45,479 bases of DNA, from positions 1-45,479 of the forward strand of contig JBOGZE010000351.1 of the NCBI GenBank assembly GCA_050697055.1, given 5' to 3'. Shown in pieces: positions 23,121 through 45,479 of the stretch. Origin of the DNA: Solirubrobacterales bacterium. Its GTDB lineage: Bacteria; Actinomycetota; Thermoleophilia; Solirubrobacterales; 70-9. The first letter of the stretch is position 1. Every line of letters begins with the position of its first letter. The translations under genes and the position numbers were made by a program. The notes beneath the pieces were generated by a model. The model saw nothing but the letters and a program-made list of their open reading frames with translations, searched no databases and was not told the DNA's origin.

Positions 23121-24752
23121 TTGGCTAAGGCGATAGGTCCGGGATCGCAGGCGGCATGGTTCGTAGTTGCGGCCGTGGGGCTGCTGGTGATCGTGCTCGT
23201 CTTCGCCCTTGGGCTGTTCAAGCGGCTCGACGCCGCCGACCAGGTGCTCGACGGTGCCCGTCCGGCCTTCACCGAGGAACGCGTGCAGGGGGACATCGCC
23301 GGGATCAGCATCGTCTCCTCGATCACCGACCTGGCGGAGCCGATCGCCACCGACAGGAGCGGCACGGCGGCGGCCGAGGTGCCGAAGCTGGTCGCGTTCG
23401 TCTCCGAGCAGACGGGCCTGCCGCAGGCCCAGGTGCTGGCGCTGCTCGAGCAGAACTTCCCCCACACCACCGCGCTGCTGCAGGCGATTCCGCTGTCGGC
23501 GGTCACGACCGAGATCCCCAAGCTGATCGCCTTCCTCTCGCAGACGCTCGGCATCACCGAGGAGCAGGTGCTGGCGGCGATCCAGCAGAACTTCCCCGGC
23601 CTGGCGCAGTCGATCACCGCGCTGCCGGCCGTCACCGATGGCTGGCACAACGTCCCGGGCACCGAGAACCTGACCCGCTTCAACGGCGATCAGGTGACCG
23701 ACGTGCCGGACGTGCGCGACTACCTCTCCGAGGATCTGATTCCGGCGGTGGCGCGCCAGCAGGACAACTTCCAGAAGCTCGACGACCTCCCGGGCGGGCC
23801 CACCGCGATCCCGCCGCTGCTCTTGGTGCTCGGCGTGGGCGTGCTCGGCTTCGGGCTGTGGATGGCGCGCCCGGCCCAGGCCGATGCCCGCCGCAGGCCG
23901 ATCGCCTGGATCGTCGTGGTCGCGGCCGGCCTGATCGTGGTGGTGCTCGTGGCCGGGGTCATACAGGCCTTCTCCCGCCTCAATGCCGGGCAGGATCTGA
24001 TTGACGACCTGCAACCCGCCTTCACCCAGGAACGGGTCGAGGGTGCCCGCGCCGGGATCAACATCGTCTCCTCGATCACCGACCTGGTGGACCCGATCGC
24101 CACCGAGAGCGGCACCGCCGCGGCCGAGGTGCCGAAGCTGGTCGCCTTCGTCTCCGAGCAGACGGGCCTGCCGCAGGCCCAGGTGCTGGCGCTGCTCGAG
24201 CAGAACTTCCCCCACACCACGGCGCTGCTGCAGGCGATCCCGCTCTCCGACGTGAACGCCGAGGTCCCCAAGCTGATCGCCTTCCTCTCGCAGACCCTCG
24301 GCATCTCCCAGGAGCAGGTGCTGGCGGCGATCCAGCAGAACTTCCCCGGCCTGGCGCAATCGATCACCGCGCTGCCGGCCGTCACCGACGGCTGGGACCA
24401 GGTCCCGGGCACCGAGGACCTGACGCGCTTCAACGGTGATCAGGTGACCGACGTGCCGGACGTGCGCAACTACTTCTCTGAAGACGTCGTCCCCGTGCTC
24501 GAGAGCCAGCAAGGGAACTTCGAGGACACGGCGGACCCGTTCCCCGACCTGGACGTCTTCCCGCCGCTGCTGCTCGGGGTGGGCATCCTGGTGATCCTCT
24601 ACGGCTCGATCATGGCCGTATGGGCGGCGCGCGAGCTCCGCAGCGCAGGTCCTCCGAGCGGGGGCGGTCCGAGCGGGGAGGGCCACAACGGCGACGGCCC
24701 CAAGAAGGCCGGCCCGAACCGCCGCAAGGTGGCCGAGAAGGCCACCGCCTGA
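23121..24752 (+). CDS. four-TM membrane protein made of two ~250-aa tandem repeats
   Basis: TTG start after a GAGAGAGGGG RBS. The pattern TM, ~200-aa domain, TM occurs twice. The opposite-strand 562-aa ORF is a shadow. Confidence 0.75.
   Translation: MAKAIGPGSQAAWFVVAAVGLLVIVLVFALGLFKRLDAADQVLDGARPAFTEERVQGDIAGISIVSSITDLAEPIATDRSGTAAAEVPKLVAFVSEQTGLPQAQVLALLEQNFPHTTALLQAIPLSAVTTEIPKLIAFLSQTLGITEEQVLAAIQQNFPGLAQSITALPAVTDGWHNVPGTENLTRFNGDQVTDVPDVRDYLSEDLIPAVARQQDNFQKLDDLPGGPTAIPPLLLVLGVGVLGFGLWMARPAQADARRRPIAWIVVVAAGLIVVVLVAGVIQAFSRLNAGQDLIDDLQPAFTQERVEGARAGINIVSSITDLVDPIATESGTAAAEVPKLVAFVSEQTGLPQAQVLALLEQNFPHTTALLQAIPLSDVNAEVPKLIAFLSQTLGISQEQVLAAIQQNFPGLAQSITALPAVTDGWDQVPGTEDLTRFNGDQVTDVPDVRNYFSEDVVPVLESQQGNFEDTADPFPDLDVFPPLLLGVGILVILYGSIMAVWAARELRSAGPPSGGGPSGEGHNGDGPKKAGPNRRKVAEKATA
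23217..24500 (+). repeat. internal tandem duplication, period ~750 bp, with near-identical core
   Basis: 23371... and 24121... share about 125 nt with only a few mismatches (cggccgaggtgccgaagctggtcgc.ttcgtctccgagcagacgggcctgccgcaggcccaggtgctggcgctgctcgagcagaacttcccccacaccac). Copy 1 is about 23217-23750 and copy 2 about 23970-24500. Confidence 0.9.
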
Positions 24753-24759: not shown

Positions 24760-25875
24760 TCAGCAGATCCGCGGCAGCGGGTCGCCGGCGAGCATGTCGA
24801 CCACGCGGGAGCCGCCGAAGGAGGTCTCGAGCAGGACCAGTCCGGGAGGCTCGGGCGTGACCTCGGCGACCGTAACGGCGTCGGCCCCGAGAGGGTGCGA
24901 GCGGAGCACGTCCAGGGCGGCGGCCTCGGCGTCGGGGGCGACCACGGCCGCCAGCTTGCCCTCGTTGGCGACGTAGAGCGGGTCGAGGCCGAGGATCTCG
25001 CAGGCGCCCGTGACCTCGGCCCTCACCGGCAGCGACGCCTCGTCGATGACGATGCCGAGCTCCGCCGCCAGGGCCAGCTCGGTGAGCACGGTGGCGAGGC
25101 CGCCACGGGTGGGATCGCGGAGGCAGCGGACGCCGTCGGGGACCGCCTCGAGCAGGGTCGTGACCAGCCCGTGCAGCGGGGCGGTGTCCGACTCCAGCTC
25201 GACCTCGAGCTCGAGATCGCCGCGGGCGATCATGATCGCCATCCCGTGGTCGCCGATCGAGCCCGAGACGATCACCCGGTCCCCGGCCTGGATCCTCCCC
25301 GGGGAGAGCTCGACGTCGGGCCCGAGGACACCGACGCCCGAGGTGTTGATGTAGAGACCGTCGGCCTTGCCACGTTCGACCACCTTGGTATCCCCGGTGG
25401 CGACCTCGACCTCGGCCGCCTTGGCGGCGGCGCCCATCGAAACGGCGATCTTCTCCAGGTCCGCAACCGGCAGCCCTTCCTCGACGATGAACCCGGCGGA
25501 CAGCGCCAGCGGCCTCGCCCCCGCCATCGCCAGGTCGTTCACGGTCCCGTTGACGGCCAGCTCGCCGATGTCGCCGCCGGGAAAGAACAGCGGCCGGACG
25601 ACGAAGGAGTCGGTGGTGAAGGCCAGCCGCGGCCCCGCACCGTCGCCGGGGCTGAGCAGGGCGCTGTCCGTGAGCGGCTCCAGGCGGGGGTTCCGCAGCG
25701 CGCGAAGGAACAGGGCCTCGATCAGGTCGTGACTCGACTTGCCGCCGGCGCCGTGCGAGAGCGTGATCTGCTGATCGAGAAGCTTGCGCCGGGGACGGCG
25801 ACGGCGCGCCTCGATCGCGTCCAGAACCTCCTCCTCGGAACGGCCCGGGCGGGTGCCGTCAGCCTCGCCGGGCAT
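24760..25875 (-). CDS. hypE: hydrogenase maturation protein HypE
   Basis: ITLSHGAGGK, AIR-synthase-like fold blocks, and C-terminal PRIC. The ATG at 25875 overlaps the hypD stop (ATGA). Confidence 0.93.
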   Translation of the reverse strand: MPGEADGTRPGRSEEEVLDAIEARRRRPRRKLLDQQITLSHGAGGKSSHDLIEALFLRALRNPRLEPLTDSALLSPGDGAGPRLAFTTDSFVVRPLFFPGGDIGELAVNGTVNDLAMAGARPLALSAGFIVEEGLPVADLEKIAVSMGAAAKAAEVEVATGDTKVVERGKADGLYINTSGVGVLGPDVELSPGRIQAGDRVIVSGSIGDHGMAIMIARGDLELEVELESDTAPLHGLVTTLLEAVPDGVRCLRDPTRGGLATVLTELALAAELGIVIDEASLPVRAEVTGACEILGLDPLYVANEGKLAAVVAPDAEAAALDVLRSHPLGADAVTVAEVTPEPPGLVLLETSFGGSRVVDMLAGDPLPRIC

Positions 25876-27071
25876 CAGGTCGACGAGGCCTGGGGCGCGG
25901 CGGCGCTCTCCTCGGGGCGAGTCCCGGCGCCGTTCGCCCGGCGCCTGCGGCCCGCGTGGCGGCCGTAGTTGTAGTACGCCGCGCAGGCGCCCTCGCTCGA
26001 GACCATGCAGGTGCCGATCGGATGGTCGGGTGTGCAGGCGGTCCCGAAGACCTTGCACTCCCAGGGCTTGATCACGCCCTTCAGCACCTCGCCGCACTGG
26101 CAGGCCTTTGGGTCGGCGACGCGGACGCCGGGCACCTCGAAGCGGACCTCGGCGTCCCAGTCGGCGAACTCCGGTCGCAACTTCAGGGCGCTCTGCGAGA
26201 TGAAGCCGAGGCCGCGCCACTCGAAGGTGGTCCGGAGCTCCATCGTCTCGGCGATCGCCTGCAGCGCCAGGGGGTTCCCCTCGTCGCGGACCACCCGGCT
26301 GTACTGGTTCTCGACCTCGCTTCGCCCGTCGGCGAGCTGCCGCAGGATCATGTAGACGCCCTGGAGGACGTCGAGTGGCTCGAAGCCGGAGACGACCACC
26401 GGCTTTCCGTAGTCGTTGGCGATGAAGCGGTAGGGGCGAAGGCCGATCACGGTGGAGACGTGGCCGGGCCCGACGAAGCCCTCCAGCCGCAGGTCCGGCG
26501 AGTCGAGAATGGCCCGGATCGCGGGGATGATCGTGACGTGGTTGCAGAAGAGCGAGAAGTTCTTGATTCCCTCGATCCGGGCTCGCTTCAGGGTGAGCGC
26601 GGTCGAGGGCGTGGTCGTCTCGAACCCGATCGCGAAGAAGACAACCTCCCGGTCGGGGTGCTCGCGAGCGATCTTGAGGGCGTCGAGGGGCGAGTAGACC
26701 ATCCGCACGTCGGCGCCGCGAGCTTTGGCGTCGAGCAGCGATCCCTTGCTGGCGGGGACCCGCATCATGTCGCCGAACGTCGTGAAGATCACCTCGGGGC
26801 GCTCGGCGATCGCGATCGCGTCGTCCTGGCGGCCCATCGGGATCACGCAGACCGGGCACCCAGGGCCGTGGACGAGCTCGATCTCGTCGGGGAGCAAGTC
26901 CTCGACGCCGTGCTTGTAGATCGCATGGGTGTGGCCGCCGCACACCTCCATCAGCTTGTAGGTCCGCCCCGGCTCGACCATGCCCGCGATCCGCTCGGCG
27001 AGTTGGCGGGCGACATCGCCGGAGCGGTACTCGTCGACGAAGCGCATGCCACTGTTGCCCGAGAGGCTCAT
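25875..27071 (-). CDS. hypD: hydrogenase maturation protein HypD
   Basis: MEVCGGHTHAI, GPGCPVCV, GFETT, and a C-terminal CxxxxxxC.. Cys cluster (CQCGEVLKG...CKVFGTACTPDHPIGTCMVSSEGAC). Confidence 0.95.
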   Translation of the reverse strand: MSLSGNSGMRFVDEYRSGDVARQLAERIAGMVEPGRTYKLMEVCGGHTHAIYKHGVEDLLPDEIELVHGPGCPVCVIPMGRQDDAIAIAERPEVIFTTFGDMMRVPASKGSLLDAKARGADVRMVYSPLDALKIAREHPDREVVFFAIGFETTTPSTALTLKRARIEGIKNFSLFCNHVTIIPAIRAILDSPDLRLEGFVGPGHVSTVIGLRPYRFIANDYGKPVVVSGFEPLDVLQGVYMILRQLADGRSEVENQYSRVVRDEGNPLALQAIAETMELRTTFEWRGLGFISQSALKLRPEFADWDAEVRFEVPGVRVADPKACQCGEVLKGVIKPWECKVFGTACTPDHPIGTCMVSSEGACAAYYNYGRHAGRRRRANGAGTRPEESAAAPQASST

Positions 27072-28486
27072 GCCCGCTCCCCGATCGCCTCGAGCAGCAG
27101 GTGGTAGATGGTCGCCTGCGCCTCCTGGATCCGTGGGATGTAGTCGCTCGGGACGATGAACAGGTGGTCGAGCCAGTCGAGTGCGGCGAGCCGGCCGCCG
27201 TCGTAACCGGCGATCCCGATTGTCAGCATGTGCCGCCGGCGGGCCTCCTCGAGCCCGGCGACGAGGTTGGGGGAGTTGCCGCTGGTGGAGATCGCGACGG
27301 CTACGTCGTGCGCCCGGCCGAGCGGGATCAGCTGCCGGGCGAAGGCCTTGTCGAAGCCGACGTCGTTGCCGACGGCAGTGATCGTGGCGACGTCGTTGTT
27401 CAGCGCCGTCGCGGGCCAGCCGTGGGCCAATGCGTCGGTCGCGAGGTCCTGGGCGTCGGTCGAGGAACCCCCGTTCCCGAACGTGATCAGGTGGCCCCCG
27501 CGCTGGAGGCGCTGCCGGATCTCGGCGGCGCAGCGCTCGACGGCGCCGGTGTCGATCCCCGAGCGCAGCTCGATCACGTCGGCGGCCTTCTGGCGAGTGG
27601 ACGACTCGACATCGGCGAGGACCGAGTCGATGTCGGTCTCCTCGCCTTCCAGGAATGGATAGAGGAAGCCGGTCGGGTCATCCGCGCTTTGGCTTGATGC
27701 TCCCTCCGGGCGCTCGCCCACCGCCGGGTCGCGTTGGCCGGGAGGGACCTTCTCCAGGGCCACCCCCGCGTGGCAGAGCAGCTCGTCGCCGACTTCGACC
27801 CCCTCGACCAGGTCGACGGCGACATCTTCGTGGGCGCCGTCCTTCTCGATCGTCGCGGTGCCGTTGCTGACCGCGACTACGCGCGCCTGCACGGCGATGT
27901 CGCCGCAGGTGATGCAGGCGTCGTCGAGCAGCCCGGGGTGCTCGAAGAAGACGTGGACCAGCTCCCAGAGCACGTGGTAGGCCGTCTCCTGAGTCTCCTG
28001 AACGATCGTGGCGTCCTCGCTCGGGACCTGGAATTCGTATTCGGCGTCGGCCCCGTGGGAGGCTCCAGGGCCGACCATCGCGATCGTCAGCATCCCGCGG
28101 CGACGCGCCTCGAGCAGGAAGGCTGCGATCTCCTCGTCGCCCCGGTCATGAGAGATCGCGAGCGCGATGTCATCGGCTCGGGCCAGCAGGGTGAGCTCCG
28201 CGGCGCCGGTCGGGTCGTTGGTCGGTGCGAGCGCCGGCAGCGCGCGCTTGCCGACGATCACCGGGTGCATGAACTCGACCGCCGCGTGGGCGGCGTCGGT
28301 CGCCGCCGCCCCGGTGCCGAATGGGATCAGGGTCCCGCCACGGGCGAACGAGCGCGCCATCGCGTGGCAGGCCCGGGCGAGCCGGGTCGCCTCGGCGTCG
28401 AAGAAGCCGCGAACGACGCGCTCGCGCTCGGCGATCAGGGCGTCCAGGCGGCCGGCGCCGAGAGTGGTCGTGCTCGGCCGGGCAGC
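27068..28486 (-). CDS. fusion protein: degenerate SIS domain, HypC/HupF-like OB domain, intact SIS (GmhA-like) domain
   Basis: C-terminal SIS: GGHLITFGNGGSSTDAQ ... AISTSGNSPN ... PRIQEAQATIYH. N-terminal SIS-like: GGTLIPFGTGAAATDAAH ... AISHDRGD ... IVQETQETAYH. Middle: CITCGDIAVQARVVAV...VGDELLCHAGVALEKV, which aligns to the HypC encoded next door. TTG at 28486 is the first in-frame start after the hypC stop. ATGA overlap with hypD. Confidence 0.75.
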   Translation of the reverse strand, partial: AARPSTTTLGAGRLDALIAERERVVRGFFDAEATRLARACHAMARSFARGGTLIPFGTGAAATDAAHAAVEFMHPVIVGKRALPALAPTNDPTGAAELTLLARADDIALAISHDRGDEEIAAFLLEARRRGMLTIAMVGPGASHGADAEYEFQVPSEDATIVQETQETAYHVLWELVHVFFEHPGLLDDACITCGDIAVQARVVAVSNGTATIEKDGAHEDVAVDLVEGVEVGDELLCHAGVALEKVPPGQRDPAVGERPEGASSQSADDPTGFLYPFLEGEETDIDSVLADVESSTRQKAADVIELRSGIDTGAVERCAAEIRQRLQRGGHLITFGNGGSSTDAQDLATDALAHGWPATALNNDVATITAVGNDVGFDKAFARQLIPLGRAHDVAVAISTSGNSPNLVAGLEEARRRHMLTIGIAGYDGGRLAALDWLDHLFIVPSDYIPRIQEAQATIYHLLLEAIGERA

Positions 28487-28494
28487 CAATGGTC

Positions 28495-28773
28495 CTACTC
28501 GATCACGCTGGTCTTGAGCTCGGCCAGCTCCTGCTCGTAGGGAGCGCCCAGCGTCTCCAGAAACTGGCGCGTCTGCTTCGCTTCCTCCTCGTCGATCTTC
28601 GACATCGCGAAGCCGACGTGGATCAGAACCCAGTCGCCGATCTCGACCCCGTCCTCGCCCTCGGCCAGAAGGCCCACGTTCACGTTTCGGCGAACGCCGG
28701 AGACCTCGGCCTTGGCGATGTGGTGCTCGGAATCGACGAGTTCGACGATCTGGCCGGGAATGCCTAAACACAT
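28495..28773 (-). CDS. hypC: hydrogenase maturation chaperone HypC
   Basis: Canonical MCLGIPGQIVEL N-terminus, 92 aa. AAGGAGGAG RBS upstream. Confidence 0.93.
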   Translation of the reverse strand: MCLGIPGQIVELVDSEHHIAKAEVSGVRRNVNVGLLAEGEDGVEIGDWVLIHVGFAMSKIDEEEAKQTRQFLETLGAPYEQELAELKTSVIE

Positions 28774-28777: not shown

Positions 28778-30964
28778 CTAACTCCTCCTTGCCGCGATCG
28801 CGGCCTGTCCGTAGCTGACGCCGCCGTCATTGGGCGGCACTTCGCGATGCTCCAGGACGCGGAAGCCCAAGTCAACGAGTCGGCGCCGCGTGCCTTCGAG
28901 CAGACGAAGATTCTGAAAGCTTCCTCCTGAGAGTACGACGGTGCGCGCCTCCGCCGCCTCCCCGCAGACCGCCGCAGCCACGGCCGTGACGCCCTCGTGG
29001 AAGGCAGCGGCGATCTCGGCGTGCGGACGGCCTACGTCAAGGTCGTCGTGCACGGCCGCGACCAGGTCGGATCCCCTGATCACACCGGCCTCTGTCGAGC
29101 ACGGATATGGCTCCGCCTCCACTTGGCCGGCGAGCTGCTCGAGCTCGATCGCCGCCTGCCCCTCGTAGCTGACACGTTCGCGGACGCCGAGCAGCGCGGC
29201 AACGGCGTCGAAGAGACGCCCCATCCCGGAAGAGAGCGGCGCGTTCACCTTGAGGCTCTCTCGCACCCTGGTCCAGTCGGCGAAGGGAACGGGACGCCCG
29301 GCTCTCTCGAGGTAGGAGGCGGCGGCGCGCCAGGGCTCCCGGATCGCCGCCTCGCCGCCAGGTAGCGCCACCGGCTCCAGATGCGCGACCCGCTCGAAGC
29401 CCTCGAGGTCGCAGCGCAGGAGCTCTCCGCCCCAGAGGGTGCCGTCGGTGCCGTAACCGGTGCCGTCGAAGACCAGCGCCAGCGCCGGGCCGGCCTCCCC
29501 GTGCTCCGCCAGGCACGAGGCGGCATGGGCGTGGTGATGCTGGACCTCGATCAGCTCGCCGGGCTGCTCGCGCGCCCAGCGGGTGGAGAGGTAGTCGGGA
29601 TGCAGGTCGCAGGCGATCACCTCGGCCTGGATCGCCAGCATCTCCAGGTAGAGCTCGAGGTCGGTGCGGAACGCGCGCAGGGCGGCCCCGGAATCGAGAT
29701 CGCCGAGGTGGGGGGAGAGGAAGGCGCGATCGCCGCGGGCGACGCAGAAGGTGCTCTTCAACTCGGCGCCGGCTGCGACGATCGGGCGGCGCGCCGGGAG
29801 AGGAAGCGGCAGCGAGCCTGGCGCGAACCCGCGAGAGCGCCGGACCGGGAAGGCGGCGCGGACGACCGAGTCCTCGCAGCGACGGTGGATGGGCCGGTCG
29901 TGGCTGAGGAACGCGTCCGCGATCCCCCCGAGCCGCTCCCGGGCATCGTCGTCCTCGAATGCGATCGGCTCGTCCGAGTGGTTGCCGCTGGTCATCACCA
30001 GAGGCCCGTCGAAATCGGCGCAGAGCAGATGATGGAGGGGGGTGTACGGCAGCATCACCCCGACCCAGGGGCTGCCAGGCGCGATCGAGGCCGCCAGGGG
30101 CGCCCCCTCGGACCCGCGCGCGATCACGATCGGATGCTCGCGGGACTCCAGCAGCTCGCTCTCGTCGGGCTCGAGGTCCGCGAGCGCCCCGGGCATTGCG
30201 GCCATCACGGCAACCGGCTTCTCCTCGCGGTGCTTGCGCCGGCGCAGGCGGGCGACCGCCAGCTCGCTGGCCGCATCGCAGGCGAGGTGGTAGCCGCCGA
30301 GCCCCTTGACCGCAACGATTGCCCCGTCGTGGAGCAGCCGCACGGCCGCGGCCAGCGCCTCTTCGCCGACCGCCCCGTTCAGCGTGAGCTGGGGACCGCA
30401 GTCCGGACAGGCGATCGGCTCAGCGTGGAAGCGGCGATCGGCAGGATCCTCGTACTCGGAGCGGCAAGCCCGACACATCTCGAAACCGGCCATCGTCGTT
30501 TTGGGCCGGTCGTATGGCGTGCGCTGCACGATCGTGAACCGTGGCCCGCACTGCGTGCAGTTGATGAACGGGTAGCGGAACCGGCGATCGTCCGGATCGA
30601 ACAATTCGGCTAGGCATTGGACGCAGGTGGGGGCATCGGCCGGGACAAGGGCGCTGGCCTGGCCCTCGGCGCTCACCTCGATCCGGAAGTCTCGCTCGCC
30701 CCGCGGCTCGATCGCCTCGGCGACGATCGAATCGACGCGGGCGAGGGACGGCGCCTCCCTGGTCAGGGCGGCGGCGAACTCGTCGAGGGAGCCGGGCGGG
30801 CCCTCGGCCTCCACCACCACCCCCCGTCCATCGTTGAGCACGAATCCCGCGATCCCACTCCGGCTGGCGAGGCCGTGCACAAAGGGGCGGAAGCCGACGC
30901 CCTGGACTACCCCCGTGATCCGAAAGCGGCGCCGCCCCAGAAGATGCTGCGGCGCTACTGCCAT
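28778..30964 (-). CDS. hypF: carbamoyltransferase HypF
   Basis: Acylphosphatase domain (ITGVVQGVGFRPFV), two zinc-finger pairs (CVQC...CTQCGPRF, CRAC...CPDCGPQL), and YrdC-like and Kae1-like domains. Confidence 0.95.
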   Translation of the reverse strand: MAVAPQHLLGRRRFRITGVVQGVGFRPFVHGLASRSGIAGFVLNDGRGVVVEAEGPPGSLDEFAAALTREAPSLARVDSIVAEAIEPRGERDFRIEVSAEGQASALVPADAPTCVQCLAELFDPDDRRFRYPFINCTQCGPRFTIVQRTPYDRPKTTMAGFEMCRACRSEYEDPADRRFHAEPIACPDCGPQLTLNGAVGEEALAAAVRLLHDGAIVAVKGLGGYHLACDAASELAVARLRRRKHREEKPVAVMAAMPGALADLEPDESELLESREHPIVIARGSEGAPLAASIAPGSPWVGVMLPYTPLHHLLCADFDGPLVMTSGNHSDEPIAFEDDDARERLGGIADAFLSHDRPIHRRCEDSVVRAAFPVRRSRGFAPGSLPLPLPARRPIVAAGAELKSTFCVARGDRAFLSPHLGDLDSGAALRAFRTDLELYLEMLAIQAEVIACDLHPDYLSTRWAREQPGELIEVQHHHAHAASCLAEHGEAGPALALVFDGTGYGTDGTLWGGELLRCDLEGFERVAHLEPVALPGGEAAIREPWRAAASYLERAGRPVPFADWTRVRESLKVNAPLSSGMGRLFDAVAALLGVRERVSYEGQAAIELEQLAGQVEAEPYPCSTEAGVIRGSDLVAAVHDDLDVGRPHAEIAAAFHEGVTAVAAAVCGEAAEARTVVLSGGSFQNLRLLEGTRRRLVDLGFRVLEHREVPPNDGGVSYGQAAIAARRS

Positions 30965-30966: not shown

Positions 30967-31263
30967 TCAGGTGCCCGCTGAGGCCTTCTCCCTGCCGGGG
31001 GGCTCGCCGGCCCCGCCGGCGGGCTTCTTCCCGGTGACCTCTTCGAGGGCCCCGGCGACCTGCTCCAGGGCGCCGTTGATGTCACCGACCACCGGCCCGA
31101 TCGGCTCGGTCTGCTTCTCGATCGCGCGCACTCCGAAGGTGACCAGCCCGAGGGTGTGTGAGACGCGCCGCAGGATGGTGGCGATCGCGATCAGGTAGAC
31201 AGCCAAGACGACGACCAAGATCGCGAGCTCGACAAGGGTGAGGACGATCAACAGGGTCTCCAT
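30967..31263 (-). CDS. small single-pass membrane protein, paralogue 4 of 4 (98 aa)
   Basis: N-terminal hydrophobic helix, then LRRVSHTLGL... and a helical tail. Its stop lies 2 nt before the hypF ATG. Confidence 0.6.
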   Translation of the reverse strand: METLLIVLTLVELAILVVVLAVYLIAIATILRRVSHTLGLVTFGVRAIEKQTEPIGPVVGDINGALEQVAGALEEVTGKKPAGGAGEPPGREKASAGT

Positions 31264-31542
31264 CTACTTACCTTTCTCCTTTCGCGCGAGCGCCCCGTGG
31301 CGCTCTACCTCCTCCAGCAGCTCCAGTCCGAGCTCCCTCGTGTTTCCAAGCATGTGCGTCGTCTGCGTGTTCCCAGCGACCCGCTTGCCCATAGTCCAGA
31401 CGTCGTCGACGGCCCGCTCCACCTCGTTCACGGTGCGTCTCAGGGCCTCGAGCAGCGCCCAGACGGCCAGGGCGATGACCAGGCCGCCGGCCAGCGACGC
31501 CCACCAGGCGACCTCGACCGAGTTCGAGAGCGCGATCGGCAT
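31264..31542 (-). CDS. small single-pass membrane protein, paralogue 3 of 4 (92 aa)
   Basis: TM helix, then LRRTVNEVERAVDDVW...NTREL. Abuts the next gene with a 0-nt gap. Confidence 0.6.
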   Translation of the reverse strand: MPIALSNSVEVAWWASLAGGLVIALAVWALLEALRRTVNEVERAVDDVWTMGKRVAGNTQTTHMLGNTRELGLELLEEVERHGALARKEKGK

Positions 31543-31814
31543 CAGAGCTTGCCCTTCACGATCTCGAGATAGGCGACGGCGAGGCCGGGCACCACCGTTG
31601 CGAGATCCCGCGTGCGGGCGAGCTCGTCGACGCCGTCGAGGTTGCGGGCGATGCCCAGGCCCCCCTCGAGAATGTCGTCCGCGTAGCCGTCGATCTCCCT
31701 GGCGGGTCGGACGATTCGGTTGAAGAGGGCGAGAACCACCACCAGCAGCACCAGTCCGACCGCGAGCCCGATCAGGGAGAGCACGAAGATCCCGGTGGAG
31801 ACGGCGAGCATCAT
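31542..31814 (-). CDS. small single-pass membrane protein, paralogue 2 of 4 (90 aa)
   Basis: TM helix, then NRIVRPAREIDGYADDIL...RTRDL. Overlapping junctions: ATGA upstream and TGATG downstream. Confidence 0.6.
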   Translation of the reverse strand: MMLAVSTGIFVLSLIGLAVGLVLLVVVLALFNRIVRPAREIDGYADDILEGGLGIARNLDGVDELARTRDLATVVPGLAVAYLEIVKGKL

Positions 31815-32053
31815 CCCGTGAGGGCCTTCCGCGCTGCCGCGAGGCCGCGAGTGATCCGGTCGACCGCCAGGTTGGTGTTCTTCACTTCGTAAAGCGGATC
31901 GGTGTTCTTGCGGGTCCCGTCGAGCGCGGCGGTTATGTCATCCGCCTGGCGCACGATGCGCCGCCCGAGCCCGATGATCGTCAACAGCAGGGTCGCCGCG
32001 AGCACCACCACGACCACGGCGATCATCCAACCGATCAACCACCAGGCGGACAC
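31811..32053 (-). CDS. small single-pass membrane protein, paralogue 1 of 4 (80 aa)
   Basis: GTG start 3 nt after the DUF1059-like stop. TM helix, then RRIVRQADDITAALDG... Confidence 0.6.
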   Translation of the reverse strand: MSAWWLIGWMIAVVVVVLAATLLLTIIGLGRRIVRQADDITAALDGTRKNTDPLYEVKNTNLAVDRITRGLAAARKALTG

Positions 32054-32056
32054 GGG

Positions 32057-32260
32057 TCAGGCCTTCCCCGGCTCCGGCTCGCCCTCGTCCCGTATCACGC
32101 TTTGCGCATATCTGGCAAGGGTCTGCGCCTGGGTCAGGTCGACGCCGTGCTTCTTGCGAGCGTGCTCGACCGCCTGTTGCAGGACCTCCTCCTCGGTCTC
32201 GCCGACGATCTTGGCGTGGCAGGGCACCCCCGCGTCCGAGCACTGAAAGGTCTTCGCCAA
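32057..32260 (-). CDS. DUF1059-like small metal-binding protein (67 aa)
   Basis: AKTFQCSDAGVPCHAKIVGETEEEVLQQAVEHARKKHG matches the DUF1059 pattern. TTG at 32260 lies 5 nt after a GGAGGAG RBS and is preferred over the track start at 32317. Confidence 0.65.
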   Translation of the reverse strand: MAKTFQCSDAGVPCHAKIVGETEEEVLQQAVEHARKKHGVDLTQAQTLARYAQSVIRDEGEPEPGKA

Positions 32261-32310
32261 CTCTTCTCCTCCTCGCCCTGGAAGTTCGTGGATTTCCGAG
32301 GGCTTGGTCG

Positions 32311-32354
32311 AAACCACTATGTGCTTGGCACCACTAGTGGACGAGCACCACTAT
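32311..32354 (-). promoter_or_regulatory. three direct 10-bp repeats at exact 17-bp spacing upstream of the DUF1059-hyp operon
   Basis: On the minus strand: ATAGTGGTGC (32354-32345), CTAGTGGTGC (32337-32328), ATAGTGGTTT (32320-32311). The middle copy is embedded in the palindrome CCACTAGTGG. Confidence 0.55.
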
Positions 32355-32658: not shown

Positions 32659-32742
32659 TAATTGGGACCAAGATCCCCTTGATTTCCAATGGAAGCCGGG
32701 GTAGGGTCGCGGCTCCCAAATGGTCGGAAGCGAGGAGAAGTT

Positions 32743-33801
32743 GTGAGCGTTGAGGTGACGTCGGCCGGGCCGATCCCGGTGGATCGCGCACCTGGCCCCG
32801 AGCGTGGCGGAGCGTCGCACGCTCTCTCCGCCCTGGAGCCGGTCGCCCTCGCCGCGACCCGGGCAGCGGCGCTCGCCTGCCAGGAATTCGTCGGCCGCGG
32901 GGACAAGACCGCCGCGGATGCCGCGGCGACCGAGGCGATGCGGTCGGAGCTCTCGACCGCCCCTGGCATCGGAACGGTGGTGATCGGCGAGGGAGAGAAG
33001 GACGAGGCGCCGATGCTCTACAACGGGGAGCAACTGGGCGTCGGCGGGCGCGAGTTCGACATCGCGGTCGATCCGCTGGAGTGCACGACCTTTTGCGCAA
33101 AGGGATTGCCCGGCTCACTCGCCACGATCGCGTTCGCGGAGCGGCGCACTCTGCTGCGGCCGGGTCCCTCCTTCTACATGGACAAGCTCGTGGTCGCCGC
33201 GCCCGCTCGCGACGCCATCGACATCACTGATCGCCCCGAGGCGAATGTCACCCGTATCGCTTCCGCCCTCGGCAAGGCGACTGCCGAGCTTCGCGTGGTG
33301 GTCTTGGACAAGCCCCGCCATGCCGAGCTGATCGGACGGTTGCATCGCACCGGGGTCTCCGTGATCACGCCGGCGGACGGCGACGTGGCGGGTGCGCTCC
33401 AGGCTCTGCTGCCTTCGCTGGAGGCCGACGCGCTGATGGGCATCGGGGGAACGCCCGAGGGCGTGATGACCGCGTGCGCCGCAAAGGCGGTCGGAGCGGG
33501 CATGCAGGCCCGGCTCGCCCCCCAGGATGAAGCGGAGGCTCAGGCGCTCGCCGAGGCGGGCTTGGACACCGATCAGGTCTTCGAGTTGGACGACCTCGTC
33601 GGCGGCTCGGCCTTCTTCGCCGCGACGGGAGTCACCGGCGGCTCCCTGCTCGGTCCCCCAAGGGAAGTGGATGGAGACCTGGTCACCCAGTCGATCCTCG
33701 TCTCCCAGCATTCAGTGAGCTTCGTGGAGGCCCGGCATGCGGGTCACGGGGGACCCACCACGACGACGGATCCATCGAGAGAACACATGGAGGTCGATTA
33801 G
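32743..33801 (+). CDS. glpX: class II fructose-1,6-/sedoheptulose-1,7-bisphosphatase (GlpX type)
   Basis: GRGDKTAADAAATEAMR, VIGEGEKDEAPML, DIAVDPLECTT, GIGGTPEGV. GTG at 32743 lies 5 nt after a GAGGAG RBS. Confidence 0.9.
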   Translation: MSVEVTSAGPIPVDRAPGPERGGASHALSALEPVALAATRAAALACQEFVGRGDKTAADAAATEAMRSELSTAPGIGTVVIGEGEKDEAPMLYNGEQLGVGGREFDIAVDPLECTTFCAKGLPGSLATIAFAERRTLLRPGPSFYMDKLVVAAPARDAIDITDRPEANVTRIASALGKATAELRVVVLDKPRHAELIGRLHRTGVSVITPADGDVAGALQALLPSLEADALMGIGGTPEGVMTACAAKAVGAGMQARLAPQDEAEAQALAEAGLDTDQVFELDDLVGGSAFFAATGVTGGSLLGPPREVDGDLVTQSILVSQHSVSFVEARHAGHGGPTTTTDPSREHMEVD

Positions 33802-33803
33802 CA

Positions 33804-34832
33804 ATGGAGAGAGCAGAGCTCGAGATGACCGCTCAGGCGATGGTGGCCGAGGGCAGGGGCATTCTCGCCGCCGACGAGAGCACGGGCACGATGGACAAGC
33901 GGCTCGAAGGCGTCGGGGTCGCACCCACCGAGGAGGCGCGCCACGCCTTCAGGAACATGGTGCTCACGGCCGACGGCGCCGGGCAGTTCATCAGCGGCGT
34001 GATCATGTACGACGAGACCCTCCGCCAGGCGACCTCCGACGGTATCCCCTTCCCGGAGTATCTGGCGCAGCGTGACGTGCTGCCGGGGATCAAGGTGGAC
34101 ACCGGCGCCAAGCCGCTCGCAGGCTACCCGGAGGAGACGGTCACCGAAGGGCTCGACGGCCTTCGGGAGCGCCTCGGCGAGTACCGTCAGCTCGGCGCGC
34201 GGTTCGCGAAGTGGCGGGCGGTGATCAAGATCGGCCCGGGGCTGCCGACCCTTGGCTGCATCGACGCGAACGCCCATGCGCTCGCCCGCTACGCGGCTCT
34301 CTGCCAGGAGGCCGGGATCGTCCCGATCGTGGAGCCCGAGGTGCTGATGGACGGCGATCACACCATCGATCGCTCGGAGGAGGTCACCACGGAGGTGCTT
34401 CGGGCGGTCTTCGGTCAACTCGCTGATCAGCGAGTGCGGCTCGAGGGGATCGTCCTGAAGCCGAACATGCTGCTCTCCGGTTATGACTGCCCGGAGCAGG
34501 CGAGCGTCGCGGAGGTCGCCGAGCGGACGCTGATCTGCTTTCGGCGCGTGGTGCCTGCCGCGGTGCCCGGGATCGCCTTCCTCTCCGGCGGACAGAGCGA
34601 CGACCTGGCGGCCGCGCACCTCGACGCCATGAACAGGCTCGGCGGAGTTCCCTGGGAGCTGACCTTCTCGTACGGCCGTGCGCTTCTGGCCGCGTGCCTG
34701 AAGACGTGGTCTGGCGACAGCTCCAGGGTTGACGAGGCTCAGGCCACCTATCTCCATCGCGCCCGCTGCACGGCGGCCGCCCGGAACGGCGAGTACAGCG
34801 AGTCGATGGAGAGAGAGCTGGTTGCTTTTTGA
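33804..34832 (+). CDS. fba: class I fructose-bisphosphate aldolase
   Basis: GILAADESTGTMDKRL and the Schiff-base Lys block LEGIVLKPNM are class I (PF00274-type) motifs. Confidence 0.9.
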   Translation: MERAELEMTAQAMVAEGRGILAADESTGTMDKRLEGVGVAPTEEARHAFRNMVLTADGAGQFISGVIMYDETLRQATSDGIPFPEYLAQRDVLPGIKVDTGAKPLAGYPEETVTEGLDGLRERLGEYRQLGARFAKWRAVIKIGPGLPTLGCIDANAHALARYAALCQEAGIVPIVEPEVLMDGDHTIDRSEEVTTEVLRAVFGQLADQRVRLEGIVLKPNMLLSGYDCPEQASVAEVAERTLICFRRVVPAAVPGIAFLSGGQSDDLAAAHLDAMNRLGGVPWELTFSYGRALLAACLKTWSGDSSRVDEAQATYLHRARCTAAARNGEYSESMERELVAF

Positions 34833-34834
34833 TA

Positions 34835-34852
34835 CATAGCTATATCTCTATG
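34835..34852 (+). promoter_or_regulatory. dyad CATAG-N8-CTATG at the head of the AT-rich fba-cbbL spacer
   Basis: CATAGCTATATCTCTATG contains the palindrome ATAGCTAT. The 122-bp spacer (34833-34954) is far more AT-rich than its surroundings. Confidence 0.4.
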
Positions 34853-34864
34853 AAAGAGGAGTGA

Positions 34865-36409
<1,545 letters not shown>

Positions 36410-36433
36410 CACCGCCAAGAAAGAGGCAGACCA

Positions 36434-36907
36434 ATGCGAGTCACACAGGGCACGTTCTCGTTCCTCCCCGACCTCACCGACGAGGAGATCGAGGCTCAGA
36501 TTCGGTACGCGCTCAGCAACGGATGGGCGATCGGGGTCGAGTACACCGACGACCCACACCCGCGCAACTCCTACTGGGAGATGTGGAGTCACCCCCTGTT
36601 CGATCTGGGGGAGGACGAGACCGAGGAGCCGATGCGCTTGATGCGCGAGTGTCGCACCGCGAATCCCAACCACTACATCAAGGTGACCGCCTACGACTCC
36701 AACTACGGCAGGCAGACGACCGCGCTCGCCTTCATCGTCAACCGCCCCGCGGATGAGCCCGGATTCAGGCTCGATCGAACGGATGTCGGCGACCGCCAGA
36801 TGGTCTACCGGCTCCAGCCCTACGCGACGCTCCGCGAGCCCGTCGGCCGCCGCTACGGCAACTCACCCGACGCGACCGGCGCAGCCAAGGACGGCGCCGG
36901 GTCCTGA
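36434..36907 (+). CDS. cbbS: RuBisCO small subunit (red-type, with C-terminal extension)
   Basis: [44 protein letters not shown] ... [26 protein letters not shown]. Confidence 0.93.
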
Positions 36908-36936
36908 GGACCCGACCTTCAACGAGGAAAACAGCG

Positions 36937-38046
36937 ATGGCCGACCAGGCATTCACCATGAATCGAAAGAGGCCCGGCGACTCCCGCGCGGCCACCCGGC
37001 CGCCCGAGGAGCCAAAGCCGACGGCCGAGATCGACCGCATCATGGCCGACGCCGCCGACTCCGAGGCGAGCGTGCAGACGATCTTGCGCGAGACCCACGT
37101 CAACCAGGTGCTCGAAGACCTGGATGCGGAGCTGGTCGCGCTCGAGCCGGTGAAGCGGCGCATCAACGAGATCGCCGCATTGTTGGTGATCGACCGGCTG
37201 CGCCAGGAGCACCGCCTGAGCTCGGAGCGTCCGACCCTCCACATGTCCTTCACGGGCAACCCCGGCACCGGCAAGACAACGGTCGCGCTGCGGATGGCCG
37301 AGATCCTGAATCGCCTCGGCTATCTCGAGAAAGGGCACGTCGTCTCGGTCACCCGTGACGAGCTCGTCGGGCAATACGTCGGCCACACCGCTCCGAAGAC
37401 CAAGGAGGTGATCAAGAGGGCCTACGGTGGAGTCCTCTTCATCGACGAGGCCTACTACCTGCATCGCCCGGAGAACGAACGCGACTACGGCGCGGAGGCG
37501 ATCGAGATCCTGCTCCAGGTGATGGAGGCGGACCGCGACAAGCTGGTGGTGATCCTGGCGGGTTACAAGGATCGGATGGACCAGTTCTTCGAGTCCAACC
37601 CCGGGATGGGCTCGCGGGTGGCCCACCACGTCGACTTCCCCGACTACGACGTGGGCGAGCTGATGGAGATCGCCGACCTGATGCTGGATCGCGCCTCCTA
37701 TCGACTCTCGCCAGATGCCGAGAAGGCACTTCGCGAGTACACCGAGCGACGGATCGAGCAGCCCCGGTTCGCCAACGGCCGCAGCATCCGCAACGCGATC
37801 GACCGCGCGCGGCTACGCCAGGCGAGCCGGTTGTTCGAGAGCGACGGTCAGCTGAGCAAGGATCAGCTGGTCACGATCGAGGCCGAGGACATCTACGCGA
37901 GCAGCGTCTTCGAGTCAAAGCATAAGGATAGCTCGATGAATAGCCCAGGAAGTTTTGCTTGCAATCCATCCATGTCACGGCTAGATTCGCCTGCCTTCCC
38001 GCGGGATGCGGGAGGCGCCGAGGCGACCGGCGAGAGTGCGAGCTAG
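36937..38046 (+). CDS. cbbX: CbbX-type AAA+ RuBisCO activase
   Basis: [60 protein letters not shown]. About 40 aa extra at the C-terminus. Confidence 0.9.
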
Positions 38047-38056
38047 GAGACGCGCA

Positions 38057-39091
38057 ATGCCACGACCAATCATCCTCGGAGTGGTCGGCGATTCGGCGGC
38101 CGGAAAGACGACCCTAACTCGCGGCCTCGTGCGCGCCTTCGGCAAGGACAAGGTGGCTCACGTCTGCACCGACGACTACCACCGATACGACCGCGAGCAA
38201 CGGGCCGAGATGAACATCACGCCGCTGAACCCTGCGTGCAACCACGTCGACATCATGGGCCAGGACCTCCGGCACCTCCGCGCCGGCGAGGCCATCCTGA
38301 AGCCCGTCTACAGCCATTCGGACGGCACCTTCCGCGCGCCGGTCTACGTCAGGCCTCACGCGTTCAGCGTGGTCGAGGGGCTGCTCGGTTACCACACGCC
38401 GGAAATGCGCGCGTGCTACGACGTTCGCGTCTATCTGAAGCCCCCGGAGGAACTGCGGCGGCATTGGAAGGTGCAGCGCGACTGCTCGCGCCGCGGCTAC
38501 ACCACCGACCAGGTCTTGGCTGAGCTCGATCGGCGCGAGCCCGACTCCGCCGCATACATCCGTCCCCAGGAGCGCTACGCCGACATGGTGGTCTCATTCA
38601 TGCAGGGCGAGACGGACAACCCGGACCGCCTCGACGCCGAGATCCTCCTCCGTGAGGGGCTTCCCCACCCCGACCTCTCGCCGTTCATCGGCAACGGGGG
38701 GCGGGGGATCACGCTCGAGGAAGGCGATCGCGAGCGGCTGGTGCAGATTCCGGGTGACATCGACCCGAATCGCGCCGCTGAGCTCGAGGAGGCGATCTGG
38801 GACAGGCTCCACTTCGCTCCGCACCTGCGCAGCCAGCGGCTGGGCGAGTTCACGATCGGCATCGATCTGCACCGCTCCGAGTCGCTCGCGCTGGTGCAGC
38901 TGCTGATCCTGTACCACATGGCGACCGCCCGCGCGGCCGTCGCCCTCGGGGGCGAGGGCACCCGAGCGGAGGGGCCCACCGACGAGCATCCGGTGATCGA
39001 TCCCGAGCTGGACCCAGACGCCGATTCCGACCCCAACGCCGGCTCCGACCCGGACGCCGGCCCCGACCAAGTCAGCGCGGTCGAGCAGTGA
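38057..39091 (+). CDS. prk: phosphoribulokinase
   Basis: [15 protein letters not shown]-loop, DDYHRYDR, and [11 protein letters not shown] at 38057 lies after an AGGAGA RBS. Acidic low-complexity C-terminal tail. Confidence 0.9.
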
Positions 39092-42789: not shown

Positions 42790-42889
42790 TTGCCTAACTA
42801 TAAACGGATTCCTTGAGAGAAACGTCCCTGTATATGGAATAGCTTGCGGGTATAGACTGCTCGTGCCGATCGCCACGAAAGGAGCGCCT
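42790..42889. promoter_or_regulatory. AT-rich divergent intergenic region between the LysR and CBS-pair genes
   Basis: 100 bp, markedly AT-rich, and contains ATAGCT (42839-42844) and TATAG elements. Divergent promoters and LysR autoregulatory sites are expected here. Confidence 0.5.
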
Positions 42890-43777: not shown

Positions 43778-43839
43778 TTGACTTTCACCCCTCGCCGCGA
43801 TCTAGTATGTGCTCTGGACATCTAGAGGTCGCTCGCTAG
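43778..43839 (+). promoter_or_regulatory. candidate promoter and CTAG-rich repeats upstream of the hydrogenase genes
   Basis: TTGACT (43778-43783) and TAGTAT (43803-43808) with a long 19-nt spacer. Three CTAG-containing elements: CTAGTATGTGC (43802), CTAGAGGTCGC (43822), CTAGTCCCGCC (43836). Confidence 0.35.
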
Positions 43840-43865
43840 TCCCGCCGCGACGAGGAGAGAGAAGG

Positions 43866-45224
43866 GTGGCAACCACGCAGGTCGGCGGTATTCCGGTAGC
43901 CGAGAAGGCGGGCGACGTCTTCGGTGGCGCTACGCCGCGCGGCATCGGGGGGCTCGGCGGTTCGGACGAGGGCCCGCTCAGCGAGGTGCATGTCTTCTGG
44001 ATCGCGGGCATGAGCTGCGACGGGTGCTCCGTGGCCGCCACCGGCGCCACCTCACCCTCGGTCGAGGAGCTTCTCGCCGGTTCGATTCCCGGGATCCCGA
44101 AGGTGGTCCTCCACCATCCGGTGCTTTCGGTGTCGGCGGGCCACGGCTTCGTCGAGCCGTTCGCGAAGGCCGTCGCCGGCACTCTCGGGGCCCCTTACGT
44201 GGTGGTGCTCGAGGGGTCAATCCCGGATGACCAGAGATTCGAGACCGAGGGCTTCTTCTCCGGCCTCGGCCTCGGCGCCGACTGGCCCGAGGGCTTCGAC
44301 CCGCCCCGCGCTGCGGACCAGCCGCTTCGGATCACCGACTGGGTCAGGTGGATGGCCCCCGGGGCGGCGGCTTGCGTCGCGATCGGAACCTGCGCCACCT
44401 GGGGCGGGGTCCCGGCGGCCGCCGGAAACATAACCGGCTCGATGAGCCTGATGGACTTCCTCGGCCGGGACTACCGCTCGGCGCTGGGCGTGCCGGTGGT
44501 CAACGTCCCCGGCTGCTCCCCGATCGGCGACAACTTCACCGAGACCGTCGCCGCCGTCCTCATGTTCCTCCAGGGCGTCGGTCCGCTGCCGGAGCTCGAC
44601 GAGCTCGGCCGCCCGGCCTGGCTCTTCGGCGAGACGGTGCACCGGCACTGCCCCCGGGCCGGCTACTACGAGGAGGGCATATTCGCGGAGCAGGAGGGCG
44701 ACGAGGAGTGCCTGGTGCACATCGGCTGCTGGGGCCCGGTCGTCCAGTGCAACATCACCGAACGCGGGGCGATCAACCACATGGGCGGCTGCATGGTCGC
44801 CGGTGGCGCCTGCATCGGCTGCACCATGCCCGGCTTCCCCGACAAGTTCTCGCCCTTCTACAAGGCGCCACCCGGTTCGGCGCTCTCGGGGGCAATGGCG
44901 AGGACCTATGGCACCCACATCCGCAGGCTGCGGCGGCTGTCGCTACGGAGTCGCAACACCGAGCCACTGTGGGACCTGACGGGCCACGTGCCGAGCGCCT
45001 TCGCCCGGGAGGCCTCGAAGCCGTCGCTGACCGCGAGGCTGGAGGGGTTCTTCTACAAGAAGCTGCAGTACTGGGACACGGTAGACCAGGCCAAGCGCAA
45101 CAAGAAGCAGCCTGTCCCGGAGAGCCTCGACGTCCTCAAGTCCGGCCCGACTGGCGGACTCGCCGGCCAGGCGCCCCCAGGTGATGGAGAAGAGGCAGGA
45201 CCCGACGAGATACAGGTGGGTTAG
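43866..45224 (+). CDS. [NiFe]-hydrogenase small subunit, no Tat signal, long C-terminal extension
   Basis: FeS ligand blocks WIAGMSCDGCS, GTCATWGG, PGCSP, HRHCPRAGYYEEGIF, CLVHIGCWGPVVQC, GGCMVAGGACIGC. GTG at 43866 follows an AGGAGAGAGAAGG RBS. No RRxF motif. Confidence 0.9.
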   Translation: MATTQVGGIPVAEKAGDVFGGATPRGIGGLGGSDEGPLSEVHVFWIAGMSCDGCSVAATGATSPSVEELLAGSIPGIPKVVLHHPVLSVSAGHGFVEPFAKAVAGTLGAPYVVVLEGSIPDDQRFETEGFFSGLGLGADWPEGFDPPRAADQPLRITDWVRWMAPGAAACVAIGTCATWGGVPAAAGNITGSMSLMDFLGRDYRSALGVPVVNVPGCSPIGDNFTETVAAVLMFLQGVGPLPELDELGRPAWLFGETVHRHCPRAGYYEEGIFAEQEGDEECLVHIGCWGPVVQCNITERGAINHMGGCMVAGGACIGCTMPGFPDKFSPFYKAPPGSALSGAMARTYGTHIRRLRRLSLRSRNTEPLWDLTGHVPSAFAREASKPSLTARLEGFFYKKLQYWDTVDQAKRNKKQPVPESLDVLKSGPTGGLAGQAPPGDGEEAGPDEIQVG

Positions 45225-45227
45225 ACC

Positions 45228-45479
45228 ATGTGCTTCAAGAACCTCCCGATCACATTCGACAAGGACGGGAATGCTCGCCTGAAGGAAGGCGTCGCCGACC
45301 CGTACTCCTACACGGTGACGGAGACCCCGCCCCTCGCCGACGACGAGGGGAGGCTGAAGCGGCTGCTGGCGCGCAACGGCCACATCCGCCAGGTCGACTT
45401 CGACCCGGTGACTCGGGTCGCCGGCGCGCTCGCCTTCCACAGCGTGGTTGACCTCGAGAACCGCAAGGTGCTGGAGACC
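45228..45479 (+). CDS. [NiFe]-hydrogenase large subunit, N-terminal 84 codons (continues beyond the window)
   Basis: ATG lies 4 nt after the small-subunit stop. DFDPVTRVAGALAFHSVVDLENRKVLET aligns with the canonical DP.TR.EGH...V....GKV N-terminal block. The frame is open to the window end. Confidence 0.75.
   Translation, partial: MCFKNLPITFDKDGNARLKEGVADPYSYTVTETPPLADDEGRLKRLLARNGHIRQVDFDPVTRVAGALAFHSVVDLENRKVLET

Follow-up and report, generated by a model that had tools for sequence, protein, structure and literature searches.

An SIS/HypC-like/SIS protein encoded in a Solirubrobacterales hyp operon as a candidate accessory factor for [NiFe]-hydrogenase maturation

The ORF within the hyp operon and its domains

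The window analysed here is a stretch of 45,479 nucleotides (nt) from a Solirubrobacterales bacterium (i.e. contig JBOGZE010000351.1 of assembly GCA_050697055.1), and the element of interest is an open reading frame (ORF) between hypC and hypD. Its product consists of an N-terminal SIS domain (SIS-N), a HypC-fold domain (HCL, for HypC-like) and a C-terminal SIS domain (SIS-C). The product is best read as something other than a heptose-biosynthesis enzyme, and is a candidate for an accessory factor in the maturation of [NiFe]-hydrogenases. An initial annotation had placed an ORF of 472 amino acids (aa) at 27068-28486. An open frame is present at these positions and its in-frame translation yields the protein then described, but the coding strand is the minus strand, the start lies at TTG 28489-28487 and the product has 473 aa. 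The TTG was chosen because homologues begin with 'MA' at the same place and because the 473-aa product then matches database protein P0002 exactly. Reading of the plus strand across 27068-28486 was ruled out by many stops. A start at 28486 was also rejected, the codon there being GCT and not a start codon.

The TTG lies 5 nt past the hypC stop (a TAG ending at 28495) and not 9 nt after hypC as first given, whilst the ATGA overlap with hypD was correctly described, the stop codon TGA 27070-27068 running into the hypD ATG at 27071-27069. On the minus strand the order is hypF, a 4-nt gap, hypC, a 5-nt gap, the ORF, the ATGA overlap, hypD, a TGATG overlap and hypE, such that the ORF is translationally coupled within a hypF-hypC-ORF-hypD-hypE operon. 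All of the motifs quoted from the protein in the initial annotation were found again (i.e. GTGAAATDAAH at residues 58-68, ISHDRGD at 112-118, CITCGD at 192-197 and LLCHAGVAL at 237-245). The sequencing runs listed as containing the sequence were all metagenome DNA runs (cave, soil), with no RNA run among them.

The three-part architecture proposed for the protein was borne out by profile and fold searches, with domain assignments far above chance level. Pfam SIS_2 matched two stretches (E 3.7e-24), and HupF_HypC (PF01455) matched residues ~198-249 (E 9e-10), its 38.9 bits exceeding the gathering score of 28.5. In the NCBIfam search the top model was gmhA (TIGR00441) at 153.7 bits, under its equivalog cut-off of 209.45; hypC_hupF (TIGR00074) scored 34.2 bits, under a cut-off of 48, and weak SIS matches to MurR/RpiR-type proteins were also obtained. 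With a profile of 14 homologues, the C-terminal domain matched GmhA structures (E ~1e-36) and the middle domain matched the Thermococcus kodakarensis HypC structure (E 9e-7), and SIS-N searched alone matched GmhA structures (E 1e-8). An AlphaFold2 model built from 120 homologues had a mean predicted local distance difference test (pLDDT) of 89.7 and a predicted template modelling score (pTM) of 0.88; besides two α/β domains it has a five-strand barrel (residues 200-247), and its linker is disordered at 258-268. Foldseek returned GmhA and DiaA for the single domains and the tandem-SIS module of GlmS for the whole chain. The HypC-like character of the middle segment, which the initial annotation had named as a point to be checked, is supported by the Pfam score, the match to a HypC structure and the predicted barrel.

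Table 1. Coordinates of the ORF, its domains and neighbouring features in the window
Feature	Coordinates	Strand	Basis
Whole ORF, SIS-N / HypC-like / SIS-C, 473 aa, TTG start, TGA stop 27070-27068	27068..28489	-	
SIS-N, residues 14-186, GmhA fold, degenerate phosphate loop (ISHDRGD)	27932..28450	-	Alignment to B. pseudomallei GmhA; family conservation
HypC-like OB domain (HCL), residues 187-250	27740..27931	-	Pfam PF01455; PDB HypC alignment; conservation; fold match of a free-standing homologue
Invariant CxxC (Cys192, Cys195), 5 and 2 residues upstream of the HypC Cys2 position (Asp197)	27905..27916	-	
Cys239-His240 (His240 = HypC conserved His; Cys239 = movable third Cys)	27770..27775	-	
Variable low-confidence linker, residues 251-272	27674..27739	-	pLDDT <50 at 258-268; alignment length variation
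SIS-C, residues 273-473, closest to GmhA	27071..27673	-	
hypF	28778..30964	-	Pfam
Canonical hypC (MCLGIPG...), 5 nt upstream of the ORF	28495..28773	-	Pfam 90.9 bits; NCBIfam
hypD, ATG 27071-27069 overlapping the ORF stop TGA as ATGA	25875..27071	-	
hypE, ATG 25875, TGATG overlap with hypD	24760..25875	-	
Four small hydrophobic proteins (80-98 aa, translationally coupled) and a DUF1059 protein, upstream of hypF	30967..32317	-	
[NiFe]-hydrogenase small subunit (43809-45224) and large subunit (start 45315 to window end)	43809..45479	+	

Two SIS halves and a HypC-like module

Both SIS domains share the fold of GmhA (e.g. 2X3Y/2XBL of Burkholderia pseudomallei and 5I01 of Neisseria gonorrhoeae), comparisons with one SIS domain giving a Foldseek TM score of ~0.9 on the target and a root-mean-square deviation (rmsd) of 1.3-1.6 A. 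In B. pseudomallei GmhA the catalytic Zn ligands are H64, E68, Q175 and H183, with D61 also important, and half-of-sites behaviour occurs within pairs of adjacent sites (PMC5705639). Each GmhA site takes Glu and His from one subunit and Gln from its neighbour (PMC4697000). A docking study using a monomer model placed Gln, phosphate-loop and GNGG-loop residues among the substrate contacts, with Glu contributed by the other monomer (PMC7705670).

Alignment of SIS-N to B. pseudomallei GmhA equated Asp65, His68, Glu72, Gln164 and His172 with D61, H64, E68, Q175 and H183, respectively. SIS-N had been described as eroded; this holds for its degenerate phosphate loop, whereas the GmhA Zn ligands are kept and SIS-N is the most conserved part of the protein. 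Additional conserved residues were His75, Pro76, Lys81, Arg82, Trp175, Glu176 and His179. His75, Pro76, Glu176, His179 and Glu183 fall on the same helical faces, and the two ExxH-like motifs that they include could extend the metal site. SIS-C retains GNGGS (338-342), ND.G (375-378), STSGNSPN (401-408), Arg453, Gln455, Glu456 and His463, and carries an FLYPF motif at 275-279. The description of SIS-C as an intact GmhA-like domain did not hold, as Asp348 and Asp352 replace GmhA His64 and Glu68 and the score lies below the NCBIfam GmhA cut-off. Neither domain thus combines the Zn tetrad with an S-T-S-G-x-S loop, the loop of SIS-N being SHDRGD and SIS-C having Asp348 and Asp352.

Conservation was counted in 83 SIS-N and 106 SIS-C sequences from a representative set found without motif bias. 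In SIS-N, H68 was present in 77 sequences, E72 in 78, H75 in 81 and H172 in 73, whilst the phosphate-loop positions 113-117 were freely variable. SIS-C had the converse pattern, with GNGGS, ND.G, STSGxSxN, R453, Q455 and E456 near-invariant (Q455 in 92 sequences, STSGxS in at least 96) and positions 348 and 352 variable (D, A, L and others). Among 50 proteins with both SIS domains, 37 had His68, Glu72, His172 and Gln455 all intact, with Asp at position 65 in 32 of these and His in the other five. Gln164 co-occurred with Asp348, Asp352 and His463 in 19/50, the reciprocal site being scrambled otherwise.

From these patterns, SIS-N and SIS-C appear to be complementary, half-degenerate copies of GmhA, and the simplest reading of the pair is a pseudo-heterodimer with two unequal sites. 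All of the GmhA features (i.e. the Zn ligands, Asp61, the GNGGS loop and the phosphate loop) are kept between the two domains but, unlike in GmhA, are divided over two non-identical domains of one chain, neither of which is complete. Because GmhA sites span subunits, the pair should form one intact site. A complete GmhA-type site would consist of the SIS-N metal ligands together with Gln455, the phosphate loop and the GNGGS loop of SIS-C, and a second site, made up of Gln164, Asp348, Asp352 and His463, would be altered or dead. Such a pseudo-dimer may represent the evolutionary fixing of the half-of-sites behaviour of GmhA. Further differences from GmhA are the inserted HypC-like domain, the hyp and hydrogenase context and the extra His75, Glu176 and His179 of SIS-N. 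The isomerase module of GlmS/GFAT likewise has two SIS domains per polypeptide arranged as a pseudo-dimer, and its Foldseek match spans both domains (TMq ~0.5); it differs in belonging to another SIS subclass, in having no Zn site and no inserted OB domain, and in an identity of ~10%.

The N-terminal Cys2 of HypC, free after removal of Met, is essential for binding Fe(CN)2CO and HypD, and a conserved His corresponds to His51 in Escherichia coli. HCL has in common with HypC/HybG/HupF (PF01455; 2Z1C, 3VYR) the OB fold, the conserved His and the location in a hyp operon. It differs in being internal or extended, in having Asp at the Cys2 position, in possessing a CxxC and a third Cys, and in having no clear counterpart of the HypC C-terminal helix. 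Since canonical HypC (MCLGIPG...) is encoded separately alongside, HCL is an additional component and not a replacement. The motifs of HCL are Cys192-x-x-Cys195-Gly-Asp197 and Cys239-His240; alignment to T. kodakarensis HypC placed Asp197 at the Cys2 position and His240 at the conserved His. Cys192, Cys195, Asp197 and His240 were invariant in 28-29 of 29 representatives (His240 in 29/29) and also across a 31-sequence alignment of fused and free-standing forms. The argument that an internal HypC-like domain cannot use an N-terminal Cys was upheld, as the Cys2 position is an invariant Asp and free-standing forms have 12-35 residues ahead of the domain. Because these free-standing forms also carry N-terminal extensions, the missing N-terminal Cys is a trait of the family and not a side effect of fusion. 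One such free-standing homologue (locus L020) was modelled with a pLDDT of 84 and likewise showed a five-strand barrel; its top PDB matches were HypC structures, with an rmsd of 1.3 A over 55 columns and 38% identity to 3VYR in Foldseek.

The third Cys moves between forms of the module. In 'CH' forms, where it directly precedes the His, an upstream Cys was found in 0/20 cases; 45 of 47 'VH' forms have a Cys at most 10 residues upstream of the CxxC. This compensatory relocation points to a four-ligand Cys3His metal site, which would sit where HypC holds iron.

Family spread and linkage to hydrogenase genes

A word-indexed protein search was used to score the 8000 candidates sharing most words with the ORF product, of which 7994 had E <= 0.001. 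The 120 matches listed all have the same three Pfam domains and are annotated either as 'SIS domain-containing protein' or as 'D-sedoheptulose 7-phosphate isomerase', the nearest deriving from Solirubrobacterales metagenome-assembled genomes. At least 576 stretches encoding a relative were present in a one-genome-per-species collection, and relatives occur in Actinomycetota (Solirubrobacterales, Gaiellales, Amycolatopsis, Streptosporangium, Kutzneria and others), Chloroflexota and Gemmatimonadota. Five gene arrangements were read in the DNA of the loci, with N, H and C denoting SIS-N, HCL and SIS-C: a single N-H-C ORF, N-H plus C, N plus H-C, three separate genes, and an N-C fusion with the HypC-like gene elsewhere, adjoining canonical hypC. 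When representatives of 50%-identity clusters were searched exhaustively with HMMER, the best 150 comprised 58 N-C, 40 C, 16 N, 14 N-H, 13 N-H-C and five H-C architectures. The three modules are hence found in all fused permutations or side by side as separate genes, and this 'Rosetta-stone' behaviour argues that they act as one unit. The fusion is therefore not special to this locus, the same three modules being widespread and arranged in many ways; the ORF of this window is an ordinary member of a family that is a variant built from known folds.

For the ORF of the window, annotated gene context was taken from a 77%-identical relative. Linkage to hydrogenase genes was examined in 81 loci, counting genes within 10 kb. 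Either hypD or hypE was found in most of these loci, canonical hypC in 65, a hydrogenase large subunit in 53, an HycI-type protease in 50 and a CxxC-type HCL module in 70. Large subunits with the motifs RICGICGDNH and DPCLPCGVH, which we take to be the group 5/1h signature, were present in 33 loci, and many of these 1h-type loci have the SIS-N/HCL/SIS-C trio directly upstream of hhyS. A second type, with RACGVCGGVH and DPCMPCTTH, was present in 11 loci, including the closest relatives of the window, where it is accompanied by a Rieske protein and small hydrophobic proteins; this large subunit is only ~40% identical to the RICGICGDNH type. The Rieske protein, small hydrophobic proteins and divergence match the description of group 1l hydrogenase (bioRxiv 10.1101/2020.08.06.239558), and the RACGVCGGVH type was tentatively classed as 1l-like on these features. 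Conservation with hydrogenase loci, a point raised in the initial annotation, was borne out in this set (i.e. hypD or hypE near most of the 81, 33 of 1h type and 11 1l-like). The family accompanies oxygen-insensitive uptake hydrogenases of soil bacteria, of groups 1h and 1l-like in these loci and also of group 2a in published accounts.

Several Solirubrobacterales loci (L004, L006, L007, L009, L011 and L013) carry the order hypF-hypC-SIS/HypC/SIS-hypD-hypE apart from the 1l-like hydrogenase. In L007 (5695-7449 and 16485-18668) it lies close to a Pyr_redox_2/Fer4_20 protein and the large subunit of another NiFe enzyme, possibly of group 3 type. The hyp operon may serve more than one hydrogenase. 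In actinomycete 1h-type loci, an ORF of ~400-450 aa without a Pfam match recurs between SIS-C and the maturation protease (L017, 11280-12641; homologues in 32 loci), and may represent either a further conserved accessory gene or a spurious frame in high-GC DNA.

Candidate functions and other features of the window

Taken together, the ORF product is probably an accessory [NiFe]-hydrogenase maturation factor in which the SIS pair would bind a metal and a phosphosugar at the composite site, whilst HCL would bear the Cys3His metal and dock on HypCD or the large subunit. HCL would hold a metal, most likely iron, on the Cys3His site as HypC holds Fe(CN)2CO there. Like HypC, it would dock on HypD or on the large-subunit precursor, and in this way would link cofactor assembly in air to whatever is bound or made at the SIS site. 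The initial suggestion of an uncharacterised maturation factor is retained to this extent. A conserved three-module factor inside a hyp operon points to a missing maturation step, with relevance to assembly of NiFe(CN)2CO in the presence of oxygen and to the source of CO where HypX is absent. The label 'D-sedoheptulose 7-phosphate isomerase' is probably a misannotation of the family, and these genes may be required when such oxygen-insensitive hydrogenases are produced in a heterologous host.

Several points weigh against this interpretation. The family is known from sequence and predicted structure. Packing of SIS-N against SIS-C is proposed from conservation patterns, and the placement of the phosphate loop and Gln in the same subunit relies partly on a docking study. 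Clustering of Cys192, Cys195, Cys239 and His240 is likewise proposed from alignments, and the metal at the Cys3His site could be zinc with no more than a structural role. The set of 81 loci was retrieved with SIS-N motifs and hence is biased to conserved SIS-N, and 11 of them had no HCL within the DNA fetched. The family is also absent from many hydrogenase systems, such as those of E. coli and Frankia synton-1 (PMC11879354), so any step that it performs is not universally needed.

The leading alternative, although unlikely, is that the protein is a non-catalytic scaffold comparable to DiaA, the DnaA initiator-associating protein. The SIS pair would then be an oligomerisation platform presenting the Hyp machinery with HCL, and perhaps with canonical HypC or the large subunit, and the conserved 'active-site' residues would have a role in structure or in binding a structural metal. 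In favour of this reading, DiaA structures rank high in both the sequence and the fold searches and SIS-C is without the catalytic Glu. DiaA is itself a GmhA paralogue with DnaA binding as its only activity, and so sets a precedent for the use of this fold in protein binding (PMC4697000). The catalytic residues have, however, decayed in DiaA and HobA (PMC4697000), and the partners and context of DiaA are unrelated. In the ORF product the tetrad, Asp65 and both loops are kept and split in a complementary manner. Such retention is not expected of a pure scaffold, which was consequently judged less likely than a maturation factor with a composite site.

A more doubtful proposal is that the composite site is an enzyme supplying a ligand, in which a phosphosugar would pass through an enediol or aldehyde bound to the metal and yield the CO ligand or some other small precursor of NiFe(CN)2CO. 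The product would be passed to iron on the Cys3His site of HCL in a HypX-independent, oxygen-compatible route. Retention of a complete GmhA-type catalytic set, fusion to a predicted HypC-fold metal site and confinement of the family to hydrogenase clusters of aerobes are all consistent with this proposal. No HypX-like cluster recurred within 10 kb of the 81 loci when long ORFs were clustered and examples scanned with Pfam, a weak test given the many spurious high-GC ORFs. The route is purely conjectural and there is no chemical precedent for CO release by an SIS enzyme; moreover, the high-affinity hydrogenase gene set of Streptomyces avermitilis includes hypX (PMC4767420). That species appears only as a comparison entry in the figure whose asterisks mark gmhA, which does not establish a gmhA-like gene of its own (PMC5900883). 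If ligand supply were true, it would explain why the family keeps company with hydrogenases matured in air.

Sensing of a metabolite by the SIS site was considered improbable. A pentose-phosphate or Calvin-cycle sugar phosphate would be bound without turnover, gating maturation via HCL according to carbon status. SIS domains act as sensors in RpiR/MurR regulators, and the conserved phosphate loop, the weak matches to MurR/RpiR-type proteins, the link of these hydrogenases to starvation and RuBisCO, and the adjacent cbb operon in the window would fit such a role. A sensor would not need conservation of the Zn tetrad and Asp65; the protein has no DNA-binding or signalling domain, and the Cys3His site would be left unexplained.

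Genes named gmhA have been recorded in hydrogenase operons. A 'putative phosphoheptose isomerase (gmhA)' is marked in the group 1h synteny figure (PMC5900883), MSMEG_2706 gmhA is listed in a microarray table (PMC5445863), and Mycobacterium indicus pranii has two adjacent 'phosphoheptose isomerase' genes (MIP5345/5346) whose best matches are from Ralstonia eutropha H16 (PMC3505973). Judged by name and operon context alone, these genes of group 1h/2a operons apparently belong to the same family. They are labelled phosphoheptose isomerase or left unlabelled, unlike the reading given here, and gmhA in a hydrogenase operon has been treated as a heptose-pathway enzyme (PMC11879354). The literature agrees with the statement in the initial annotation that gmhA-like genes occur in hydrogenase loci and that no maturation role has been described for them. 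No description of complementary half-sites, a CxxC HypC-like module or a maturation role was found in the literature search, and the Hhy and Huc reviews and functional papers checked make no mention of a gmhA-like gene. An ordinary GmhA heptose isomerase merely sitting in the operon, as suggested by database names, the top NCBIfam model and the heptose-pathway treatment, is very improbable given the sub-cut-off score, the split site, the fused HypC-like domain, synteny with hyp and hydrogenase genes conserved across phyla, and the finding of no heptose-pathway genes (gmhB, hldE/gmhC/gmhD, glycosyltransferases) among the window ORFs scanned.

Upstream of hypF, the small hydrophobic proteins of the window are conserved in Solirubrobacterales and Gaiellales loci and resemble HylTM of group 1l clusters; in the Gemmatimonadaceae locus L022, one such gene lies between the small- and large-subunit genes. 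The small subunit is unusually long (471-507 aa; window 43809-45224 (+), L081 4669-6192), with a ~70-residue N-terminal extension before Oxidored_q6.

By consuming atmospheric H2, hydrogenases of groups 1h, 1l and 2a provide the H2 cycle with its main biological sink, and their activity supports "living on air" with RuBisCO, which is encoded in the same window as the ORF. A complete Calvin-cycle operon (32689-41145 (+)) separates the hyp genes from the hydrogenase structural genes, and comprises a glpX-type FBPase, RuBisCO large and small subunits, a CbbX-like AAA protein, phosphoribulokinase and transketolase. Near this operon are a divergent LysR (CbbR-like) regulator at 41800-42927 (-), a Rex-like protein and a CBS protein. 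This juxtaposition points to CO2 fixation driven by H2 ('atmospheric chemosynthesis'); in L081, a close relative, hydrogenase genes stand in place of the Calvin-cycle operon.

Convergent with hypE, a 543-aa ORF (23121-24752 (+)) has a very high third-position GC (0.93) and no convincing Pfam family; L081 has a homologous 517-aa gene at the same place. Elsewhere, at 7181-11428 (-), two adjacent CbiA/ParA/Mrp-type P-loop NTPases are encoded beside a protein of 898 aa that combines a Peptidase_M41 domain with two AAA domains and is FtsH-like, but with no obvious membrane anchor call.

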